From: a candidate division WS2 bacterium ADurb.Bin280
GTDB taxonomy: Bacteria > Patescibacteriota > UBA1384 > DTJR01
DNA: 64,000 nt
Direction: 5' to 3'
Assembly: GCA_002071685.1 (NCBI GenBank)
Contig: MWBO01000031.1
Coordinates: 702 to 64,701 of the forward strand
Shown here: positions 3,352-64,000 of the stretch, in pieces
Numbering within the stretch: the first letter of the stretch is position 1
How the letters are laid out: every line of letters starts with the position of its first letter
Position numbers and translations under genes: made by a program
The notes under the pieces: model-generated
The model's input: only the letters and a program-made list of their open reading frames with translations
Database searches by the model: none
Told to the model about the DNA's origin: nothing

Positions 3352-3822
3352 ATGGCCGTTGCGGAGAAAAGGAAGGTGCAGCATCCGACATTTGCGCTCG
3401 ACTATGCTGTTTTGAGCGCAATGCTGGACGCAATGAAGTTGCCCGAAGATCTGAAAGAGTCAATCGCTCTGATCCCCGGGCTTCCCAAACCTGACGTTTC
3501 GCAGATCCTCGCAAGAGTATGTTCGGAGGTCGGATCTCCAAGCCACCGGATCCTCTGCAGGAGCCGCGGACTCGGAAAAGAGGAGCCGTTGAGCCAGTAC
3601 GTCGCCTTCAAAAGGATTGAGGCGGCTGATCGCATCATCCTCCGCGATAACGCCCTCGTAATCACTGGGCACCACTCACAGTGGCCAGAATACCTCGAGA
3701 TTCGGGTGAAAAATGTGGGCGACACAGGAGGTGTCGACGAGGGTGTCTTCGCAGTACTTCTGGCGACGGCCCTCTGGCGATGCAATCACCGCCTGATCAT
3801 CAACAGGTGCGAGGGTGACTAG
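3352..3822 (+). CDS. hypothetical protein, GC-rich island B (156 aa from ATG 3352)
   Basis: GGGAGGTG SD at 3338-3345, 6 nt before the ATG. The ORF is GC-rich, and its TAG stop is followed by a hairpin terminator. No family recognised. Confidence 0.5.
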   Translation: MAVAEKRKVQHPTFALDYAVLSAMLDAMKLPEDLKESIALIPGLPKPDVSQILARVCSEVGSPSHRILCRSRGLGKEEPLSQYVAFKRIEAADRIILRDNALVITGHHSQWPEYLEIRVKNVGDTGGVDEGVFAVLLATALWRCNHRLIINRCEGD

Positions 3823-3848
3823 TTCGCTTCGCGCACCGTCTCAATTCC

Positions 3849-3888
3849 GGCCGGGTGGCCTCAAAACCGCCCGGCCGTCGTCGTTTTG
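3849..3888 (+). terminator. intrinsic terminator of island B ORF
   Basis: GGCCGGGTGG / CCGCCCGGCC stem (one G-U pair), 8-nt loop, tail GTCGTCGTTTTGG. Confidence 0.6.
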
Positions 3889-3938
3889 GAGCAAGCCGAA
3901 TATCAAAAATACCTTCAAAAATACTTTTTATCTAAAAA

Positions 3939-5585
3939 TCAGAGCTTTCTAGGGTCGTTTGTGTTTTCTCCAAAAATAAATTCTTGCTTTGAACCTCTTT
4001 CGCAGTAATCAACTACAAAATCAATACTATCGCCTTGAACTATTGGTTCAATCTTGCTAATTGAAGTTGGACGGTCAGGAGCAACCAATTTCGCCCCATA
4101 CAAACTGGACATTTGCTTTCCTATTCCCTCGCTTTGACCAGTACTACAAGATGACAAAATAATTACCGGATTCTCTGCCAAAAAGGATCCCATTCTAGCG
4201 ACCCCCCTGCCAAACAAATCCTGAATATTGAGAATATGAGCGTGTTGTATGATCTCTTGCGCCTCTTGATCAAGTCTGTATCTTTCATAATCAAAACTTT
4301 CATAATTTTCATCAAAATAAGCGTTATAGTCTTTCATTATCACTTCTCGCGGTGTACCAAATTGAATCGAACTATGTGTCCCATGCCCGCCGATTATGGC
4401 AAAAGAAATTTTGTTTTGCTTTCCGTATCGCCTTTCAAGACCAGCAAGGCGCTTTGCTACTTCAAATTTTCCACCACCCTCAACAATTCTGACAGTAAAA
4501 TTTCCCATTTGATACCGATTTGCAAGATTTTCAAATATTTTCTTGGAGTAGAGGCCCCCATTCCAATCAGATTTAGGAAACAGAATTATTCCATATGGGC
4601 TGTGATGGTCCCTCTTTTCATATTGACCAATCAATAACTCAACGGGGTATCTCGAAAAAAATTCTATTCCAAACTCGTGATTGAGTACTTTGCAAATGCC
4701 GGGATGAAGGTCCTCGAGAGTCTCTATGCTTAATAAATTTTCCCCTATATGTCGCGAACGTCTCTGATCAGGATAAGTGGTTAACCAAGACTTCTTGAGC
4801 CCTCCCCAATCAAGATCGTATCTTTTTAAGAATTTTTCCAGCGATTCGTTTATTTCCTGATTATCGGATCCTGCAAGCGCACCCAATAATTCTACATGAC
4901 TTAAAATTTCGCAAAGATATTCCGAAGATCTATCCGTTGATCTATAGCTGTCAAGCTCGTAGCAAAAATCCTTCGCGTAGTCCTGACTGATTGGTGGATA
5001 TTCTCCCGCACTTTCAATGTTGTCAATATAAAAAGCAATGTCTTCAGGATGAGAAGGTTTCAAGTCCCTCAAGAGATATTTGTCTTCGGGATCGGCATAA
5101 TAGTGCATGAAAAGGGCGGCAAATTTATTCTCAATCTCTTCGTTTATTCTGTGATCATCCGGAGACTCCGTTTTCGTACAATAAAAAGATCTCGCAAGCG
5201 CCATAAAACCGGTCTGATAACCCTCTAAATTCGAGGCACGATCATAGAGCCTATCGAGTTGACCAAAGAAAAGTTTTTTCAGTTGCTCAATCTCGCCCTG
5301 ATACTTAGGACATCTGCCCGCATCATCGATAATCGACAGCAGAGAGTCAAATTGACGCTGGTCCATGTCATAGCACAGGGTACAGGCTTCATCTATGTAC
5401 TCAATAGAGCTTTTTTTTGACGAAACGTCACCTTCAAGTGGCTGGCCGTTTTCATCTGCCATCGCAAAGAAATTCAGCCTGCTAGATTTTGCTTCTTCGA
5501 GTGCAACATCAATAGCCTGACGATTAAACTCGACTTCTTGGTCAGACAAACCCTGCCCCTCGCTTGGATTGGGAGTTTCCCCCAT
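3939..5585 (-). CDS. hypothetical protein with a C-terminal CHAT/caspase-like (clan CD) His-Cys dyad domain
   Basis: The C-terminal ~200 aa show strand-motif order IILFP, VRIVEGGG, FAIIGGHGTHSS, VIILSSCSTGQ. These resemble the CHAT HG and LSAC-x-TG motifs. The gene starts 2 nt after the pnp stop. Confidence 0.45.
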   Translation of the reverse strand: MGETPNPSEGQGLSDQEVEFNRQAIDVALEEAKSSRLNFFAMADENGQPLEGDVSSKKSSIEYIDEACTLCYDMDQRQFDSLLSIIDDAGRCPKYQGEIEQLKKLFFGQLDRLYDRASNLEGYQTGFMALARSFYCTKTESPDDHRINEEIENKFAALFMHYYADPEDKYLLRDLKPSHPEDIAFYIDNIESAGEYPPISQDYAKDFCYELDSYRSTDRSSEYLCEILSHVELLGALAGSDNQEINESLEKFLKRYDLDWGGLKKSWLTTYPDQRRSRHIGENLLSIETLEDLHPGICKVLNHEFGIEFFSRYPVELLIGQYEKRDHHSPYGIILFPKSDWNGGLYSKKIFENLANRYQMGNFTVRIVEGGGKFEVAKRLAGLERRYGKQNKISFAIIGGHGTHSSIQFGTPREVIMKDYNAYFDENYESFDYERYRLDQEAQEIIQHAHILNIQDLFGRGVARMGSFLAENPVIILSSCSTGQSEGIGKQMSSLYGAKLVAPDRPTSISKIEPIVQGDSIDFVVDYCERGSKQEFIFGENTNDPRKL

Positions 5586-5587
5586 AT

Positions 5588-7774
5588 TTATTTTGCTTTT
5601 TTGATAGAAAGCGAAACTCTACCCTTTTCCGGGTCGATACCGGTCACTTTTACTTTGACTTTGTCACCAACTTTGACTTTGCACGAGACATCGGGAATTC
5701 TCTCGTCGCAGATCTCGCTAATGTGCACCATCCCGTCTTTATTGGGCAAAAACTTGACAATAGCACCGATCTCTTTGCCGGTGTTTCTATCTTTTTGAAT
5801 ATTGACGACTTCTCCATCGTAGATCTTATCAAGCTCCGGCTCAACTGTCTGACCTTCAACCATCGATTTGACTAGTTCGGCAGCTTTGGAATCGGCCGAA
5901 GAAATCATCACCGTCCCGTCATCCTCGATGTCAACTGCAACTACCTCTTTTCCACCAGCTTGGGCGATGATATTCTGAATATTTTTGCCCCCCGGGCCGA
6001 TTAATTCTCCGATTTTAGCGGGATTTATTTTGACAGTAATTATTCGTGGAGCATATTGGGAGAGTTCGATCTTGGAAGATGGAATGATGGAAAGCATCTT
6101 TTGCATGATGAAGTCTCTACCTACCTTCGCCTTCGTGAGGGTTGAGCGGATCATTTCCATTGAAAGTCCGTCGATTTTGACATCAAGCTGAATAGCGGTG
6201 ATTCCGTTTTTCGTTCCTGCCACCTTGAAGTCCATATCTCCACCAAAATCTTCAACACCTTGGAGATCCGTCAAGACAGCAAATTGGTATTTTTCGTCTT
6301 CTTCGATACCCTCGATCTCTACTTTCTCGCCTGTCTTTGGCCTTGAAACCATTCCCATGGCGATCCCTGCCACCGGCTCCTTGATCGGCACGCCGGCATC
6401 CATCAGGGCGAGAGTCGATCCACACGTAGCCGCCATCGAGGAAGATCCGTTTGACGAAAGTATCTCACTGACTAATCTGATAGTATAGGGAAATTCATCT
6501 TTGGAGGGCAAAACAGGGACCAAGGCCTTCTCCGCCAAAGCGCCGTGCCCTATTTCTCTTCTGGAAGCTGAGCCAACTCTCTTTACTTCACCGGTAGAAT
6601 AAGGAGGAAAATTGTAGAAATGCATGTATCTCTTGGTCGTGTCTTCTTCCATCGTATCGATGAACTGCTCCATCCCCGGACTTGCCAAGGTAGCTATGGT
6701 CAACGACTGGGTCTGTCCGCGAGTAAATAAACCCGAGCCATGAGCTCTGGGCAAGAGACCCGTTTTTATATCAAGAGGTCTTATTTCGTCTAGCTTTCTG
6801 CCGTCCGGCCTGATGCCATCGGCAAGAATCGTCTCTCTTACTTCTTTTTCCAAGAATTTATTAAAGACTTCTTCCAGATCCGCCTGTTTGTATTTGCCTT
6901 CAAAGGCCGTTAAGATCTCATCCTTCAAACTCTGGACATTGTCTTCTTTGGCGGCATTTTCTCGATCGAGCATTGTTTGGTGCAATCTTGAACCAATCAA
7001 TTCCTTGACGGCCAGTTGCATTTCAACAGTGTGATCTTCTACGGCAATCTTATCAGGATTGATGAAGGGTTCTTGAGCATCTATTAATTGATCGATGTAA
7101 GTTTGGGCGAATTCGATCGCTTCGACTACTTTTTCTTCGCTGATTTCCTTTGAAGATGCCTCAAGCATCAAAACTCTCTTTTTGGTTCCGACAACAACTA
7201 GATCGAGAGTGCTGTTTTCCATTTGTGATCTGAGAGGATTTGCCACAAACTCACCGTCGATCATACCAACACGAACGCCTCCGATCGGTCCCATGAATGG
7301 AGCCATCGATTGGCAAATTGCTGTTGAGGCGGCTAGTAGCGCCAACATATCAGGATCGTTCTCTTTATCAAAAGAAAGAGTCGTGATAATAACTTGGGTC
7401 TCATGCCTAAAATACTTGGGAAAAAGAGGCCTGATCGGGCGATCGATCATTCTTGAATTTAATATTGCTTGCTCGCTGGGACGACCTTCTCTTTTGATAA
7501 ACCTTGATCCGGAGATTTTTCCCGAAGCATAAAATCTCTCCTCGTAATCAATACTCAAGGGCATGTAATCCATGTCAGAGGGTTCTTTACCGACGACACA
7601 GGTTGCCAAGACCATTGTTCCGCCCGCTTGCGCTAGGATGGCACCGTCTGCTTGCATTGCTAATTCACCAGAACTAAGCCGCAGGTTTTGACCTGCGACG
7701 CTAAATTCTATCTCTTTCTTTTCCATTTTCCTCCAGAGATCGGGCCTAAAGCCTGAAATACGAACGTACTCCAA
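5588..7774 (-). CDS. pnp: polynucleotide phosphorylase
   Basis: Two RNase PH-like domains, FGGDMDFKVAGT motif, and KH and S1 C-terminal domains. Confidence 0.95.
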   Translation of the reverse strand: MEYVRISGFRPDLWRKMEKKEIEFSVAGQNLRLSSGELAMQADGAILAQAGGTMVLATCVVGKEPSDMDYMPLSIDYEERFYASGKISGSRFIKREGRPSEQAILNSRMIDRPIRPLFPKYFRHETQVIITTLSFDKENDPDMLALLAASTAICQSMAPFMGPIGGVRVGMIDGEFVANPLRSQMENSTLDLVVVGTKKRVLMLEASSKEISEEKVVEAIEFAQTYIDQLIDAQEPFINPDKIAVEDHTVEMQLAVKELIGSRLHQTMLDRENAAKEDNVQSLKDEILTAFEGKYKQADLEEVFNKFLEKEVRETILADGIRPDGRKLDEIRPLDIKTGLLPRAHGSGLFTRGQTQSLTIATLASPGMEQFIDTMEEDTTKRYMHFYNFPPYSTGEVKRVGSASRREIGHGALAEKALVPVLPSKDEFPYTIRLVSEILSSNGSSSMAATCGSTLALMDAGVPIKEPVAGIAMGMVSRPKTGEKVEIEGIEEDEKYQFAVLTDLQGVEDFGGDMDFKVAGTKNGITAIQLDVKIDGLSMEMIRSTLTKAKVGRDFIMQKMLSIIPSSKIELSQYAPRIITVKINPAKIGELIGPGGKNIQNIIAQAGGKEVVAVDIEDDGTVMISSADSKAAELVKSMVEGQTVEPELDKIYDGEVVNIQKDRNTGKEIGAIVKFLPNKDGMVHISEICDERIPDVSCKVKVGDKVKVKVTGIDPEKGRVSLSIKKAK

Positions 7775-24596: not shown

Positions 24597-24625
24597 AATA
24601 TATTAAAACATCGTTTAAATATCAA
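24597..24625 (-). promoter_or_regulatory. candidate promoter of the femAB-pheST operon
   Basis: On the minus strand: TTGATA (24625-24620), 17-nt spacer, TATATT (24602-24597). Confidence 0.4.
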
Positions 24626-24640
24626 GACGGGGTTAAGTTG

Positions 24641-24707
24641 AGGCAAAAGCTAAACGGCTCATACGAGTGAGCCGTTTAAATACCACGGCCCCGGGTTTAC
24701 CGGGGCC
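24641..24707 (-). terminator. tandem hairpins terminating island C ORF
   Basis: First hairpin: GGCCCCGG-GTTTA-CCGGGGCC (24687-24707). Second hairpin: AAACGGCTCA-6 nt-TGAGCCGTTT (24652-24677), followed on the minus strand by AGCTTTTGCC. Confidence 0.55.
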
Positions 24708-24732
24708 TGAAGAGATGTACAAAGCCGAGGGT

Positions 24733-25173
24733 TCACGGGGCTTCGAAGACCTCCAGCACCCGAGCGTTGGAGAGCTCGAAGCCAAATCCGCCTCCGCTCT
24801 CGATCGAGCTCGAGAGAGCCTCCCCGAACAACCAGAGACGATCAGCGTGGCGGAGCTGGACAGGACGGATGGCAAACGACTGTCGCCCGACCGGTAAAAC
24901 CCGACAGGGCATCTTGAGGTAGCCATCCTGCTCGAACTTCCGCCTCTCCCGATCTCCGCTCAGGGTGAGCGGAAAGTAAGGAATAACTGCCCGAGCATCA
25001 CCCAAACGAAAGTGCAGATCGTAACGTCCCGAATCGACCATCCGGTCCGCACAGATGATAACAGTGGTGCTGGTGGGGCTGGCAAGAACGGCGCGCACTG
25101 ACAAGACGTCCGCCTCCTCGCCGTTTGATACACCGACGACGAGCAGGCACAGCACGACACAAATCGCCTTCAT
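24733..25173 (-). CDS. hypothetical secreted protein, GC-rich island C
   Basis: ATG 25173 has GGAG 8 nt upstream. The N-terminus MKAICVVLCLLVVGVSNG looks like a signal peptide. No family recognised. Confidence 0.5.
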   Translation of the reverse strand: MKAICVVLCLLVVGVSNGEEADVLSVRAVLASPTSTTVIICADRMVDSGRYDLHFRLGDARAVIPYFPLTLSGDRERRKFEQDGYLKMPCRVLPVGRQSFAIRPVQLRHADRLWLFGEALSSSIESGGGFGFELSNARVLEVFEAP

Positions 25174-25214
25174 GGGCCTGACTCCAAGTTTATTGAACGC
25201 CAAACGCTATGGCG

Positions 25215-25242
25215 ATTATACCCTTTTGACTTTCAAAATCAA
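25215..25242 (-). promoter_or_regulatory. candidate promoter of island C ORF
   Basis: On the minus strand: TTGATT (25242-25237), 16-nt spacer, TATAAT (25220-25215). Confidence 0.45.
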
Positions 25243-53596: not shown

Positions 53597-53633
53597 ATGA
53601 TAAATTTAACAGTTCGGACAAAATAATGAAAGA

Positions 53634-53666
53634 GGGCGGTGTGTGCGCATTGCGCACACACCGCCC
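53634..53666 (-). terminator. intrinsic terminator of the island D bicistron
   Basis: 15-bp perfect stem GGGCGGTGTGTGCGC / GCGCACACACCGCCC with a 3-nt loop. The minus-strand tail is TCTTTCATTATTTT. Confidence 0.6.
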
Positions 53667-53675
53667 CTTTGATTC

Positions 53676-54218
53676 TCAGCGAGCCCGAGCAAGCAGTAGC
53701 CGGCCGGTCGCTTGCATTTCCTGTCCGCGCTCAAGGCGATCGCCAACCTGCGAAGCGGCGAACGCCTTATACGCATAGGCGCGGTCGCCGTTACAGCACT
53801 CAAGCACTATCCGGAAGACGTAGTTGCCGGACCGGCCAACCTTCCTGACGATCTCAAGTGCCGCCTCGCCTGCGATCTTGCACTGGCGTCCTTCTTCGTT
53901 CCAGCCCACCAGAAAATCCAGGGCCTCCGCGCCACCATTGGCGCTCGGGACGATCACCAGAACATTCTGGTAGCCAGGGTTGTGTGTCGCATTTTCGCGA
54001 ACAGAGCAAATGGCGTTCCTCTCAAGCTTCCACGGGGGATTGGGCCGACTGTTGTCGATCAGAGCATTCGCTCCGACAACAAATGACCCGCCGTCCTTAC
54101 CGGCAAGTCCGCGAATCCTTTGTATTGCGCCAGATGTGACGTAAACGCCCTGGCCGTTTGGCGCCCTCCCAATCCCATATTTAGCGCCTGACGGCAGCTC
54201 TAGTGTCGCCTCTACCAT
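53676..54218 (-). CDS. hypothetical protein, GC-rich island D, gene 2 (180 aa)
   Basis: Its ATG lies inside the ATGGTAG overlap with gene 1. Codon structure looks coding, and a terminator lies 9 nt downstream. No family recognised. Confidence 0.5.
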   Translation of the reverse strand: MVEATLELPSGAKYGIGRAPNGQGVYVTSGAIQRIRGLAGKDGGSFVVGANALIDNSRPNPPWKLERNAICSVRENATHNPGYQNVLVIVPSANGGAEALDFLVGWNEEGRQCKIAGEAALEIVRKVGRSGNYVFRIVLECCNGDRAYAYKAFAASQVGDRLERGQEMQATGRLLLARAR

Positions 54219-54565
54219 TTCGCGACCTCCATGATCCTTGCGGGCTCGCCGATGATGAAGTATACCCGACCGGACTTGTCTGGATCGTGGATGATCATCG
54301 ACAAGCCAAGCTCGAGGTACAACTCTTCTTTCGGCTGATTCAGAAGAATCCTGGCCACAGCTGCCGCTGCTTGTCCGGCGAAAACGATCACCGCTTCGCT
54401 GACCGCGCTAGCCAATGTGTTGCGCGGTAGCTTGAGCTGCTGCTCGATCGCCTCCTTGCTGAGATGACAATGTACAAGACAGGGATCGCACGGCATCGCC
54501 AACAGGCAATCGTAGCCAGCTGGCACCCGCCACCACAAAACCTCACCATGAGCGAGGACGTACAT
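54212..54565 (-). CDS. hypothetical protein, GC-rich island D, gene 1 (117 aa)
   Basis: GGGAGGAG SD 6 nt upstream of ATG 54565. No family recognised. Confidence 0.5.
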   Translation of the reverse strand: MYVLAHGEVLWWRVPAGYDCLLAMPCDPCLVHCHLSKEAIEQQLKLPRNTLASAVSEAVIVFAGQAAAAVARILLNQPKEELYLELGLSMIIHDPDKSGRVYFIIGEPARIMEVAKW

Positions 54566-54652
54566 CGCACACTCCTCCCGCCAACCAAAGATAGGTACGA
54601 AAACGTATATTTTTTATCAAAAAATAGATCTTAAATCAATGCAAAAAGCTTT

Positions 54653-57737: not shown

Positions 57738-57907
57738 AGATCTTGTGTCGGCTGCTTTATTTTTTTGTGATTTTTGCTAGAATTACATCTGTGCAAAAAG
57801 GTTTTCAAACGCAATGTCTCCGCCAGCTGGCGGATGGTGGTTAGGACCTGCCTACCGGCAGGCGGGCACCAGGCAATCGTCAGGTGATCGTTATGAATTC
57901 AATTGGA

Positions 57908-57982
57908 GGCCCCATCGTCTAGTGGTTAGGACACCAGGTTCTCATCCTGGCAACCGGAGTTCGACTCTCCGTGGGGTCACCA
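57908..57982 (+). tRNA. tRNA-Glu (anticodon CTC) with encoded CCA
   Basis: Cloverleaf folded by hand: acceptor GGCCCCA/TGGGGTC, D arm GTCT-AGTGGTTA-GGAC, anticodon arm CCAGG-TTCTCAT-CCTGG, T arm CGGAG-TTCGACT-CTCCG, then A-CCA. Confidence 0.9.
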
Positions 57983-58068: not shown

Positions 58069-58424
58069 AAATTAAAAGTTAAAAATCAAAAATTAAAATG
58101 ATAATTAAAAAATAAAAAAGATTACAAAATTATTTTCTAGTAGCCAAAGCTACAGACAATGATAGAACCAGAGGGGCTTAATTGCCTGCCCTGTCGTAGT
58201 TAGCTAAATTGCTAACGAAGGAGGGCGAGGCAGCCCCTATGGTTCTATCGAATCCTTACGGCGCACGCTTGTTTCAAGAGCAAAAAATAAGCTTTTCTTT
58301 CTGGCAAACCCTCTCGACAAGTTTGCGAGCTTCCGCCAGAAGCAAAAAGCTTATTTTTCTTCCTGAAACTTTATTACATTACAAATACTTGGATTCTTAA
58401 TCCTTCATTCATCATTCTTAATTC
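58069..58424 (-). repeat. non-coding element copy L, inverted homolog of copy R
   Basis: Shares with 61382-61792 (as reverse complement) the GAATTAAGAATG head, a long AT-rich hairpin around the conserved CGCAAACTTGTCG, a GC-rich second hairpin (58161-58249) and the TTTTTAACTTTTAATTT tail. Confidence 0.55.
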
Positions 58425-58545
58425 TGAGATCTTAATTTGATAATTGCTTAATTGAGTTTGGGAGGGACGCGACCTCCCCAGAACGATGTTTCGAAAAGTG
58501 TGAGCCCCCAATGTGAGCTCGCGTCCCTCGGGTGTCCCGCGCGCG

Positions 58546-58716
58546 TTAGACACCGCCGACACAGGCGTTGTGCTCTTCGGCGCTCCTTTCGGCGCGCTCA
58601 AGCACAGCTAGCTCTACAGGCGTCAGAGCTTGACCGCTGTCCCTCTTCTCCGCGAGACTCGCGATGCGCTGGGCCTTTTCGGCATTTGCTTGTGCGGCTC
58701 TCGAACCTGCTGACAT
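58546..58716 (-). CDS. small hypothetical protein (56 aa), GC-rich island E
   Basis: AGGGAGGA SD 4-5 nt upstream of ATG 58716. Predicted helical, Ala/Glu/Arg-rich. No family recognised. Confidence 0.4.
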   Translation of the reverse strand: MSAGSRAAQANAEKAQRIASLAEKRDSGQALTPVELAVLERAERSAEEHNACVGGV

Positions 58717-58786
58717 GTCGTCCTCCCTGCGGTTCTGCCCCCGCAAGCGGGGGGTCGTTCTCCGTCGCGCGCGACGGGATATGATA

Positions 58787-58815
58787 ATTACAGCAAAAAA
58801 TTTCTAACAAGTCAA
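58787..58815 (-). promoter_or_regulatory. candidate promoter of island E ORF
   Basis: On the minus strand: TTGACT (58815-58810), 17-nt spacer, TGTAAT (58792-58787). Overlaps the stop of the upstream oxidoreductase gene. Confidence 0.35.
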
Positions 58816-59990
58816 GATAGGAGTTCTTTCAAGAGATCATCTGTTTTTATTTTAGTGCCCAATGATTGGCGGGCGATTTTCGTTTTTTGCAAAAGATTTA
58901 GAGTGCTTATGCCGACAACCTTGCCTTCCTTTTCAAAAATTGCTGCGTAGCGCTCGCCCGATGCCATATCACTCATCTGATATTTTTTATCGGCGCTTCC
59001 ACAGAAGAATAGCTGGCAAGACAAGACTTTTTTTGAAACCATCGTATATGTTTGCGACAAGACATCGCCTCCCGAGGCGTTTAAACCTGCTATTTTGCCT
59101 GATTCTTGAGCAAAAAGATAGTTCCCGGGCAGGCTCCACTCGTGTGAAAAAGGATCCTCGAACTGGCAAACATCTCCGCAAGCATAGACATCCTCAAGCG
59201 AACTGCGCATCCTTTTGTCAGTCACTATTCCCTTATCGATCGCCAAACCAAGCGATTTGGCAAAATCAAGATCTATCTTCAAACCTATTGCCGACACCCC
59301 TAGATCAAAATCAACCCTTTCTCCGTTATCAAGAATCGCTGTTCTGACGGCTTTTTCTGATGAGATTTTTTCTACTTGAGCGTTAGCAATAATCTTCACG
59401 CCCGCTTTTTGCAAACTTTTTTGTAAAATTTTTCCCCCCGCCTCACCAAGACGATTTTGCAAAAGATAGTCATCACGCATTATCAACACAATCTTTTTGC
59501 CAAGCTCAGCAAGTCCGTCGAGAAGGTCGAGTGTCAAGAAACCCCCTCCGACTACCAAGACTTTTTGTGCATTTTGCACCTTGTCCTTGAGATTGACAGC
59601 ATCTTGGAGCGAATAAAAACTCAAAAACGCATCCTGCGCACCCTGCACCTCAAGCCGTCTTGGCTGACCACCGCTGGCGATAATCAATTTATCAAATTCA
59701 ATCTGCTGACCGCTTTCCAGTTTGACCCTTTTTTCATCATAGCGCCCCTCGACTACCCGCCCCTTCGTCAACTCAATCTTGTATTTTTCATAAAATTGCT
59801 CACTTCGCAAAAATAACTTGTCTTTTGAAATTTTTCCAGAGAGGAAATGATGAAAAATTATTTTACTATAGAGACAATGCCCCTCTTGATCAACGACCAA
59901 AACCCTGCCCTCAGAGTCGTTTTCCCTGATAGCTTGAGCCGCCGCTATTCCGGCGGGCCCTCCGCCAATAATCAAATAATCGGTTTCCAT
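58812..59990 (-). CDS. FAD-dependent pyridine nucleotide-disulfide oxidoreductase family protein
   Basis: DYLIIGGGPAGIAAA and VLVVGGGFLTLD dinucleotide-binding motifs, plus an ACGDV motif. Confidence 0.8.
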   Translation of the reverse strand: METDYLIIGGGPAGIAAAQAIRENDSEGRVLVVDQEGHCLYSKIIFHHFLSGKISKDKLFLRSEQFYEKYKIELTKGRVVEGRYDEKRVKLESGQQIEFDKLIIASGGQPRRLEVQGAQDAFLSFYSLQDAVNLKDKVQNAQKVLVVGGGFLTLDLLDGLAELGKKIVLIMRDDYLLQNRLGEAGGKILQKSLQKAGVKIIANAQVEKISSEKAVRTAILDNGERVDFDLGVSAIGLKIDLDFAKSLGLAIDKGIVTDKRMRSSLEDVYACGDVCQFEDPFSHEWSLPGNYLFAQESGKIAGLNASGGDVLSQTYTMVSKKVLSCQLFFCGSADKKYQMSDMASGERYAAIFEKEGKVVGISTLNLLQKTKIARQSLGTKIKTDDLLKELLS

Positions 59991-63119: not shown

Positions 63120-63145
63120 AAACGGCTCATTTGAGTGAGCCGTTT
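63120..63145. repeat. second copy of the AAACGGCTCA/TGAGCCGTTT hairpin
   Basis: Same 10-bp stem as 24652-24677. The loops differ at 2 of 6 nt (TTTGAG vs TACGAG). Confidence 0.7.
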
Positions 63146-63156
63146 ATTTTCGAGAT

Positions 63157-63195
63157 AAAAAAAAAGGGGGCGCGCTCCGTTAAGGAGCTGCCCCC
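63157..63195 (-). terminator. intrinsic terminator of the island F bicistron
   Basis: On the minus strand: GGGGGCAGCTCC-TTAAC-GGAGCGCGCCCCC followed by T9. It lies 16 nt after the stop at 63212. Confidence 0.65.
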
Positions 63196-63211
63196 GAGCA
63201 CTACGATACTG

Positions 63212-63559
63212 CTAGGGCTCGTTCACCCCGATTAGTTCGAACTCAACGACCCGATCGTCCGGAAGGGCAATGGCGAAATCTTGGTCACCACCTCCCCGAC
63301 GATAGATGCGAAGGTCGCTGTAGAAGCGCGTACCTTTGCAAATCGGCAGACTGTGAGCGGGTATCAATCCGCTCCCGACTGAGCGTGGCGGGCTCGAAAG
63401 CTCCACGACATGCACGAGCAGACCTTCGCCACTCGCTTCCTCGACACGTACAGCATATGACCTGTAGCTCCCCTTGTGTCCAATCTTCAGGCGAAACGTT
63501 CTACCCTCACAGGGGACTCCAGCAACAAGGTCAACCACTGCGTTGGCTTGAGCGTCCAA
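63212..63559 (-). CDS. hypothetical protein, GC-rich island F, gene 2 (115 aa, TTG start)
   Basis: GC-rich ORF with GAGG upstream and a strong terminator downstream. No family recognised. Confidence 0.45.
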   Translation of the reverse strand: MDAQANAVVDLVAGVPCEGRTFRLKIGHKGSYRSYAVRVEEASGEGLLVHVVELSSPPRSVGSGLIPAHSLPICKGTRFYSDLRIYRRGGGDQDFAIALPDDRVVEFELIGVNEP

Positions 63560-63587
63560 CTTCGCATCACCTCGAATCCTGTCTTCT

Positions 63588-63971
63588 TCAACAAGGCCTG
63601 AGCCTGCACTCAGGATACTGCGACAAGCAGTCCGTGATATCGAAGATCTCAGCGATCATTTCGCCGGTCTCGGCGATCACGACACCCTGATGATTCGATG
63701 CTTTCTCAAAACGCGCAGGAAGATACCGCCTCCCAGTTCTGATCGGAATGAGGGGGTAGGGCAACATCACCTCGTTGGTCAGATCGCCTTCCTGAAGTCG
63801 CCCAAGGATACTATCCTTGAACCACCGATCGTGGCTGAAGTAATAGATCCTTGCGCTCCCTCTTGCGGTAGCTCCCTCGCTCCCGACTACTTTGATCAGA
63901 TAGATGCGACCGGCTCCATCAGGACCGGAGATCGGCCTCACACCGATTGAGGCGGCAGTTGCGATTGGCAA
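63588..63971 (-). CDS. hypothetical protein, GC-rich island F, gene 1 (127 aa, TTG start)
   Basis: GAGGGAG SD 9 nt upstream of TTG 63971. No family recognised. The island continues to the window edge. Confidence 0.45.
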   Translation of the reverse strand: MPIATAASIGVRPISGPDGAGRIYLIKVVGSEGATARGSARIYYFSHDRWFKDSILGRLQEGDLTNEVMLPYPLIPIRTGRRYLPARFEKASNHQGVVIAETGEMIAEIFDITDCLSQYPECRLRPC

Positions 63972-64000
63972 AGCTCATCACTCCCTCGTGGTATCGTTCA

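Follow-up and report, generated by a model that had tools for sequence, protein, structure and literature searches.

The window analysed here is a stretch of 64,000 nucleotides (nt) from a contig of the uncultured candidate division WS2 bacterium ADurb.Bin280. On its minus strand, directly downstream of a gene for a Pyr_redox_2 protein, there is a GC-rich island that holds an open reading frame (ORF) of 56 amino acids (aa). The data suggest that this island is probably a strongly promoted small-protein mRNA with a conserved clamp between its 5' and 3' ends, which would control its stability or its translation. Two predicted structures carry this reading: a long-range helix, P1, between the start of the transcript and the segment after the stop codon, and a terminal hairpin, T. 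Comparison with related loci, which gives the decisive support, shows that these predicted helices are conserved with compensatory changes in three versions and that the constraint on them is stronger than that on the coding sequence. The features of the island are as follows.

58787-58815, minus strand: promoter, with the -35 box TTGACT at 58815-58810, a 17-nt spacer, and TGC plus the -10 box TGTAAT at 58792-58787 (extended -10)
58762-58779, minus strand: 5' arm with the local hairpin H1; the long-range helix P1 takes its 5' strand, UCCCGUCGCGCG, from 58779-58768
58738-58754, minus strand: hairpin H2, CCCCCG-CUUG-CGGGGG, between the 5' arm and the Shine-Dalgarno (SD) sequence
58721-58728, minus strand: SD sequence AGGGAGGA, 4 nt ahead of the ATG at 58716
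58546-58716, minus strand: 56-aa ORF MSAGSRAAQANAEKAQRIASLAEKRDSGQALTPVELAVLERAERSAEEHNACVGGV (stop included), annotated as hypothetical protein BWY43_00532
58535-58545, minus strand: 3' strand of P1, CGCGCGCGGGA, which starts right after the stop codon and pairs with 58779-58768
58462-58529, minus strand: terminal hairpin T, with the outer stem GAGGGACGCGA(g)CUC / GAG(g)UCGCGUCCCUC
58460-58478, minus strand: alternative local hairpin GGGAGG-UCGCGUC-CCUCCC (-10.8 kcal/mol), which excludes T

The promoter, both leader hairpins, the SD sequence and the 56-aa ORF of the original prediction can all be read in the sequence at these positions on the minus strand. The GC content of the island is 57-64%, against 42.5% for the window. 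The island and both of its junctions are 100% identical in two independent Logan assemblies (L001 and L002), so it is not an assembly artefact. The -35 box overlaps the TGA stop codon of the upstream Pyr_redox gene (392 aa, 58812-59990, minus strand) and the predicted transcription start is at about A58780, 1-4 nt before the 5' arm. The promoter aligns with TTGAT..-TGG/CGG-TATAAA of the other types of element described below, and a promoter scan tool gives an overlapping register, TTGTTA-18-TATCAT. A near-consensus promoter with an extended -10, homologous to the TATAAA promoters of the other types, suggests strong expression. In the leader there is a perfect 16-nt palindrome, CCGTCGCGCGCGACGG, at 58777-58762, followed by CCCCCGC-UU-GCGGGGG at 58753-58738. 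The palindrome can form H1 (CCGUCG-CGCG-CGACGG, 58777-58762, -10.4 kcal/mol), which uses the same bases as P1 and is therefore an alternative to it. Taken alone, the leader folds with a z-score of -1.3 against shuffled sequences. GGAGG or AGGAG is found upstream of 8 of the 39 long ORFs of the window, compared with a background of 1.2%.

Because neither the peptide nor the DNA of the island could find relatives, we used the neighbouring Pyr_redox_2 protein as an anchor. The look-ups were protein-anchored only, and its homologues range from 73% to 44% identity. There are nine syntenic relatives, all with a small GC-rich ORF directly downstream of the Pyr_redox gene:

L003: Pyr_redox homologue 73% identical to that of the window
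L004: Pyr_redox homologue 54% identical
L005: Pyr_redox homologue 50% identical
L007: Pyr_redox homologue 46% identical; L008 and L009 are partial contigs with the same Pyr_redox protein
L011: Pyr_redox homologue 46% identical
L012: 27-kb contig, found via the peptide; Pyr_redox identity not applicable
L014 and L015: Pyr_redox homologue 46% identical
L016: Pyr_redox homologue 46% identical

The conserved gene order is YchF, a protein of about 284 aa, a protein of about 131-140 aa, Pyr_redox and the element, with a tRNA-Glu nearby. All ten loci share one layout: a promoter, a 5' end that pairs just before T, and an SD sequence, an ATG and a small GC-rich ORF in between. We divided them into type A (the window, L003 and L004), type A' (L011 and L012) and type B (L005, L007 and L014-L016). 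Types A' and B differ from type A in sequence and have the same layout. The checks named with the original prediction included conserved pairing at homologous loci and a search of Rfam; the pairing was found in all nine relatives, and the Rfam search gives no family.

Within type A, blocks of the leader and trailer are nearly invariant. The 36 nt from the -10 box through H1 are identical in the window, L003 and L004, and between the window and L003 there are four differences in about 60 nt from the -35 box to H1. Across the same three loci the trailer block CGAGGGACGCG(A/G)GCUCACAUUGGGGGCUCA is identical at 28 of 29 positions and the block GAGGUCGCGUCCCUCCCAA at 19 of 19. For the adjacent gene, identity between the window and L003 is 73% over the DNA and only 54% over third codon positions. 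The leader and trailer blocks are conserved far above the neutral level. Divergence starts exactly at ATG+3 and stops at the stop codon, and the ORF region is GC-rich (56-66%) in every lineage of a clade with about 42% GC. The position of H2 is kept while its sequence has changed (GCCCC-GAAA-GGGGC in L003 and UGCCC-U8-GGGCA in L004), and purine runs of the SD type precede the ATG in all ten loci. The claim that structure outweighs coding in this island is thus borne out, as the leader and trailer, with their compensatory changes, are the most conserved part of the locus. The opposite pattern, a conserved protein between freely varying untranslated regions (UTRs), was not seen: the UTRs are conserved and it is the protein that varies freely.

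These data bear on the simplest explanation, that the island is an orphan gene of the ordinary kind, or a GC-rich fragment acquired recently, in which hairpins occur by chance. The whole island folds with a z-score of only -1.64, its ORF has no relatives, and there are other GC-rich islands with ORFs of this kind in the window, all of which such an origin would account for. The element is nevertheless syntenic in nine related loci from different samples, its helices are kept by compensatory change and its flanks are conserved far above neutral. The explanation is already contradicted by these comparative data and we regard it as the least probable of those considered here.

Several lines of evidence point to P1. 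The duplex in the window is predicted at -25.0 kcal/mol, a value reached by one of 500 shuffles. In all ten loci P1 lies between -18 and -25 kcal/mol, with each value reached by at most 7 of 500 shuffles, and P1 is found 0-5 nt ahead of T. These figures come from per-locus duplexes with shuffle controls, which replaced a matrix of cognate and non-cognate duplexes; the matrix was uninformative, the CG-rich arms cross-pairing with an unrelated hairpin in the type B trailer. The full-length minimum free energy (MFE) fold uses P1 in all ten loci, and six full predicted transcripts, folded independently (MFE), each give P1 and T enclosing the SD sequence and the ORF. The strands of P1 exist in three unrelated sequence versions:

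Type A: 5' strand CCCGUCGCGCG, 3' strand CGCGCGCGGG
Type A': 5' strand CGUUGCGCG, 3' strand CGCGCAACG
Type B: 5' strand UAUCUCGCUCGUUGCC, 3' strand GGCAACAGCGAGAUA

P1 varies within type B by U·G pairs and by register, with G·U replacements in L014-L016. In type A' (L011 and L012) the sixth base of the 5' arm is changed from C to U, and this is matched by a change from G to A both in the 3' strand of H1, giving the local hairpin CCGUUGCGCGCAACGG, and in the distal strand of P1. Because both partners have changed with the arm, this suggests that both of its alternative pairings, H1 and P1, are maintained.

The arms of T in the window (58529-58515 and 58476-58462) are 15 nt long and 93% complementary, and across loci it is 65-80 nt long with the form GGGAC...UUG..GGG...GUCCC. 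The GGGAC/GUCCC core and the interior UUG..GGG (58511-58505 in the window) are invariant in the ten aligned sequences. The window hairpin folds with a z-score of -3.06 (1 of 200 shuffles), and T alone gives z-scores of -3.1 to -6.1 in four loci. When the 11 pairs of the outer stem are followed through the ten loci, 87% of cells are paired, compared with 36-51% when the partner strand is slid. There are double changes in four of the 11 pairs (GC/AU, AU/GC, GC/AU and GC/UA), covariation scores 0.271, compared with 0.145 in shuffles (reached in 0 of 500), and RNAalifold retains nine pairs. G·U variants are seen at alignment columns 4/77 and 13/68. The G·U replacements in T and P1 argue for a structure in the sense-strand RNA, as opposed to one in DNA or in an antisense transcript. 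The mutually exclusive trailer structures of the original prediction are both present in the window and recur in all three sequence versions. The local 3' hairpins of the other types have other sequences (GGCAGUG-UCCC-UACUGCC in type B; there is one in type A' also), and the CCUCCC tail of the window hairpin resembles an anti-SD sequence. The trailers of all type B loci also carry a conserved hairpin, CCGCG-UCGUGGG-CGCGG, directly after the stop codon (for example at L014 2349-2368), which is not found in type A.

Three known classes of element were considered and rejected. T is not an intrinsic terminator: it is followed by CCAAACUCAAUUAAG, there is no U-tract, and a terminator scan reports none there. 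Terminator-like hairpins with a T-run do exist elsewhere in the clade, near the tRNA-Glu of L014 and downstream of the window ORF at 63212-63559. An integron attC site is an imperfect inverted repeat with R''/R' core sites (RYYYAAC ... GTTRRRY), located 3' of an ORF and found in arrays near intI. T ends in ...GUCCCUCCCAAAC with no GTTRRRY core, it is a single unit without an array, and its neighbours are Pyr_redox and tRNA-Glu. In transfer-messenger RNA (tmRNA) the 5' and 3' ends form a tRNA-like domain, with the T-arm ahead of the 3' acceptor strand and a terminal CCA. Here the topology is reversed, because the 3' strand of P1 comes before T, and ARAGORN finds no tmRNA.

In another reading the flanks act as DNA. 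The 5' palindrome and the inverted repeat of T could be recombination or homology arms of a cassette or recombination site, at which small ORFs are swapped at a fixed expression site near tRNA-Glu. Unrelated ORFs do lie between near-identical flanks, both L011 and the window carry truncated tRNA-Glu fragments, and the tRNA-Glu of the window is on the opposite strand. Additionally, L011 and L012 are 99.9-100% identical over at least 1 kb, which takes in the 3' part of Pyr_redox, the leader and the whole 216-nt ORF, as far as the middle of T. Past this point the identity is about 80-85%, with indels (L011 4480-4797 against L012 6197-6426; upstream, 3500-4200 against 5217-5917). The drop marks a sharp recombination breakpoint within T. 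Against such a site, however, the G·U substitutions in the helices would be mismatches at the DNA level, and the limits of divergence at ATG+3 and at the stop codon fit selection on UTRs and not recombination junctions. The distribution of ORF families tracks the phylogeny of the neighbouring gene (the window excepted), T has no attC core sites, and there is no cassette array. There is one copy per locus with none elsewhere in the window, and none in viral contigs (three exact-string scans). We therefore consider a DNA cassette very unlikely.

For an mRNA clamped in this way, a mechanism can be proposed. The first 12 or so nt of the transcript would pair either locally, as H1, or with the segment right after the stop codon, as P1. 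P1 would close the SD sequence and the whole ORF into a loop, with T following within 0-5 nt. The paired extreme 5' end and the stable T, which has no U-tract, could shield the mRNA from 5'-end-dependent decay and from 3' exonucleolytic decay, and switching between H1 and P1, and between T and the local 3' hairpin, would set the yield of peptide. The dual pairing of each base in the arm, together with the invariant motif in T, could account for the conservation of sequence as well as of structure. The enclosed peptide would evolve fast and, in the lineage of the window, would have been replaced or have diverged beyond recognition. Sequestration of the SD sequence was rejected as the general mechanism, as pairing between the SD sequence and the anti-SD-like 3' segment is plausible in types A and A' and absent in type B.

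Three families of ORF are found within this one layout: (i) the 56-aa ORF of the window, (ii) ORFs of 48-71 aa and (iii) ORFs of 81-86 aa. Families ii and iii are as follows.

Family ii: L003 (48 aa), L004 (52 aa) and L011/L012 (71 aa), with the common pattern ..KPKP..AGKP..H(Y/F)A..VAGVTI..
Family iii: type B loci, 81-86 aa, Cys-rich and polar

Profile-profile comparison among families i, ii and iii finds no relation (probability at most 0.3%), and a search of 5.8 billion proteins with the family ii profile returns its own members only. The ORFs of L003 and L004 differ at 11, 10 and 27 first, second and third codon positions, respectively, with a proportion of non-synonymous differences (pN) of 0.26 and of synonymous differences (pS) of 0.66. 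In family iii pN (0.27-0.44) is below pS (0.52-0.81) in six of six pairs. Because pN is below pS and differences are in excess at third positions, the relatives' ORFs (families ii and iii) appear to be translated genes under purifying selection. They evolve fast, at 34-62% aa identity, in comparison with their near-identical UTRs. All ten loci keep the SD sequence, the ATG and a stop codon that borders directly on the conserved trailer.

The ORF of the window is an ORFan: in a word-indexed search among 5.8 billion proteins the 56-aa peptide matches only itself, and an exhaustive phmmer search of 1.84 billion representatives returns itself and one repetitive 431-aa protein (E 1e-4). Neither this peptide nor those of the relatives match Pfam, PHROGs, NCBIfam, PADLOC or the PDB sequences. 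The AlphaFold model of the 56-aa peptide is a helical hairpin (pLDDT, the predicted local distance difference test score, 84) of hydrophilic Ala/Glu/Arg type; Foldseek finds only generic helical hairpins with it (E>2). Derivation of the ORF from family ii or iii by a frameshift was considered and rejected, as there is no significant similarity in any frame. There are only short resemblances (ANAEKAQ/ANAAKAR and V(G/A)GV), and alignment of its DNA with L003 and L004 is at shuffle level (z 1.8-2.7; L003 against L004, z 8.1). The peptides of L003 and L004 are recognisably related though their neighbouring enzymes are only 56% identical, whereas the window enzyme is 73% identical to that of L003 and the peptide is not recognisable. 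For this reason the window ORF would be a replacement or the product of an episode of extreme divergence. Judged by pN and pS, the frame is conserved in families ii and iii, and the window ORF has no homologue for such a comparison. The original prediction had proposed that the island could be an RNA element rather than an ordinary gene. The conserved, compensated helices support a cis-acting RNA element, but the contrast with a gene is not supported, given that SD, ATG and stop are kept in ten loci and that the relatives' ORFs have pN below pS with a third-position excess.

It had also suggested an antitoxin-like RNA with a small peptide. In a type I toxin-antitoxin-like system, the P1 fold-back would silence a toxic-peptide mRNA until 3' processing and the antitoxin would be an antisense RNA. 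In hok mRNA the 5' end of the full-length transcript pairs with the 3' end (the tac/fbi/ucb fold-back) and has an alternative local partner (PMC9841398). The island has the same architecture, with a 5'-3' fold-back and alternative local pairing of the 5' arm, P1 in ten loci, the H1 alternative in types A and A', and a small ORF with an alternative 3' hairpin; like hok, it is predicted to be a bistable small-ORF mRNA. It differs from hok in that it lacks a hydrophobic toxin, a detectable antisense RNA gene and an overlapping frame like mok, in being chromosomal, syntenic and single-copy, and in that sequestration of the SD sequence is not consistently predicted. The peptides are not of the membrane type: that of the window is hydrophilic, family ii has a hydrophobic stretch of about nine residues, family iii is Cys-rich and polar, and neither ii nor iii has a hydrophobic segment of transmembrane length. 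Within the element of the window, L003 and L014, a strict consensus match scan of the opposite strand finds nothing promoter-like, there is no match in PADLOC, Pfam or NCBIfam, and the locus is vertically inherited. We consider a toxin-antitoxin function more improbable still than a DNA cassette, and the antitoxin part of the original prediction found no support.

A number of observations weigh against a clamped small-protein mRNA. Where transcription starts, where the mRNA ends and whether the ORF is translated are predictions. Against shuffles the fold of the whole island is not significant on either strand (z -1.64 sense, -1.15 antisense), and the degree to which the frame sequesters the SD sequence differs between loci and is not consistent. 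The number of pairs with double changes in T does not exceed its shuffle control (188 of 500). With only about three independent lineages behind the ten sequences, the statistics of covariation are thin, and suggestive rather than conclusive. For the window ORF the evidence of translation is indirect: it has an SD sequence, an ATG, a stop codon abutting the conserved trailer and G at the first position of 29 of 55 codons (p 0.004), with no evidence of selection, and the chance probability of such an open frame is 0.18; its helical-hairpin model is confident yet uninformative. Finally, plain stabiliser hairpins usually conserve structure and not sequence; here the arms are nearly identical and the interior of T does not vary, which hints at a partner that acts in trans or at another function.

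This last point leads to two further readings. In the first, the frame is a bistable RNA device of a WS2-related clade with a trans-acting partner that recognises T, and serves as a fixed, high-expression 'socket' where small GC-rich ORFs arise and turn over; this is possible, if on the doubtful side. The socket would be a cradle for new micro-proteins, or else a dual-function RNA of which the RNA part is the conserved function. Because P1 and T abut, they would bring the 5' and 3' ends together, and end-joining or coordinated processing of the ends is possible. In the second reading, the frame itself is a functional RNA, with a dual function or as a scaffold, that binds a protein or RNA via T, and the ORF is a secondary spacer, incidentally translated and free to turn over. 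The flanks are better conserved than the ORF in every comparison, three ORF families without detectable homology occupy the same frame, the interior motif of T is invariant across the three types, the window ORF has no relatives, and the ORF region is GC-rich in every lineage, all as this reading would have it. The SD sequence, ATG and stop codon are nonetheless kept everywhere, and pN below pS in families ii and iii indicates that those peptides matter. Additionally, there is no Rfam family, and the window showed neither a second copy nor an obvious target. We regard a functional RNA with a spacer ORF as unlikely.

The preferred reading, a clamped small-protein mRNA, has parallels in known systems. 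These likenesses, that to hok included, are functional analogies and not family membership, and there is no homology. In the hbs mRNA of Bacillus subtilis, a helix of about 14 bp that joins the 5' UTR to the 3' UTR modulates access of RNases, the protein is small and highly expressed, and stability is tied to translation initiation at a strong SD sequence (PMC5737220; Braun, Durand & Condon 2017). In the island, P1 (11-15 bp) likewise joins the extreme 5' end to the 3' UTR, and the SD sequence and the promoter are strong. It differs from hbs in that there is no sequence or protein homology, the arm is at the very 5' end, P1 abuts a large T without a U-tract, and the ORF is not conserved. In icaR of Staphylococcus aureus, a C-rich, anti-SD-like motif in the 3' UTR is complementary to the SD sequence of its own mRNA (PMC3868564), just as GUCCCUCCC of types A and A' is complementary to their own SD sequence, GGGAGGAC. 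In contrast to icaR, the anti-SD-like strand of the island is held inside T by the SD-like GAGGGAC in the predicted ground state, type B has no such complementarity, and the protein is a peptide of 48-86 aa instead of a regulator of about 186 aa.

A 5'-terminal stem-loop (as in the ompA 5' UTR) or a 3'-terminal hairpin can stabilise an mRNA, and such elements normally conserve structure only. The island resembles them in that pairing begins within a few nt of the predicted 5' end and that its 3' end has a hairpin that is stable and GC-rich. It differs in being 93-100% conserved in sequence where neutral sites are 54% identical, and in that each arm has two alternative partners. The element is apparently a structured mRNA frame that is restricted to one clade and has not been described before; it is a variation on the known 5'-3' UTR clamps, and it outlives its coding content.

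Searches for the element elsewhere gave few matches of any kind. BLASTN finds no other copy of the island in the 64-kb window, and a covariance model of T finds T once (74.9 bits). With one copy in 64 kb, and all ten loci in the same context, the island is not a repeat of the repetitive extragenic palindrome (REP), miniature inverted-repeat transposable element (MITE) or IS200 type. Scans of the window, the island and the tRNA spacer with Rfam 15, at gathering and at permissive E-value thresholds, give only tRNA-Glu as a passing match. The best score on the island is whalefall-1 (13.6 bits on hairpin H2; gathering score 37, E 1.4), and in six related loci the element has no Rfam match at E<=1. 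A blastn search of phage records found no match, as did the three exact-string scans of viral contigs. An 18-mer from T gave one chance match in metagenome contigs of the Joint Genome Institute (JGI), to an unrelated GC-rich contig (L006). The clade seems to be absent from the GTDB genome contig set, because neither a relative of the neighbouring gene nor a match to a type B string was found there. An ORF of 110 aa antisense to the island (58452-58784, plus strand) was considered and set aside, as it has no family matches and is an expected by-product of high GC.

The region downstream of T has features of its own. The tRNA-Glu(CUC) of the window is 475 nt from the island on the opposite strand (57837-57875 and 57908-57982 region). 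In L005, L007, L011, L012 and L014-L016 a tRNA-Glu follows T on the same strand after about 55-85 nt. Fragments that resemble the 5' part of a tRNA are located upstream of the complete tRNA-Glu in the window (GTGGTTAGGAC..GGGCACCAGG) and in L011 (4668-4700), and the interval between T and the tRNA appears to be a hotspot of rearrangement. In all type B loci (L005, L007 and L014-L016) there is a conserved extended -10-like motif, TGATAGGATTTCAAAAG, just upstream of tRNA-Glu, which may have its own promoter or be transcribed by read-through from the small gene. In all three type A loci there are degenerate, AT-rich short repeats (TTAAGAAT, CAATTAG and TGAAT units) downstream of T (window 58380-58450; L003 2060-2330; L004 3000-3140). 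The window has a long A/U-rich hairpin of 99 nt at 58271-58369 (minus strand) with the apex CGCAAACUUGUCGAGAGGG and no Rfam match. L003 has a similar A/U-rich hairpin at about 2440-2520, with another stem sequence and the near-identical apex CGCAAACTTGTCGCGGGGG, and this likeness suggests that another conserved structured element lies downstream of the small gene. In the AT-rich spacer between the island and tRNA-Glu, at 58161-58249, there is an 89-nt hairpin whose 18-bp outer stem is 94% complementary; it has no meaningful Rfam match.

Other GC-rich islands (55-58% GC) are located at 1-598, 3414-3921, 24621-25227, 53599-54602 and 63148-64000 of the window, and their ORFs of 113-180 aa have no Pfam match. 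The island at 24.7 kb opens with TTGATT-N18-TATAAT and a 5' hairpin, CGCCAUAGCGUUUGGCG; this is similar in style to the island described here, with no sequence similarity and no copy of T. A 26-nt hairpin, AAACGGCTCACTCNNATGAGCCGTTT, is found twice in the window (24652-24677 and 63120-63145; 0 expected by chance). The two copies are just downstream, on the minus strand, of the GC-rich-island ORFs 24733-25203 (156 aa) and 63212-63559 (115 aa), which are not homologous to each other.

To our knowledge, only a few of the bacterial mRNAs studied are known to have long-range pairing between their 5' and 3' ends (hbs, icaR and the hok-type toxins). If confirmed, the element would be a structured cis-element new to Rfam. 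It would also be an unusually clear case in which constraint on UTR structure exceeds constraint on coding sequence and in which small proteins without detectable homology share one expression frame, and it would bear on the origin and turnover of micro-proteins. Additionally, it suggests that GC-rich islands in AT-rich genomes can mark structured mRNAs, besides non-coding RNAs or foreign DNA.

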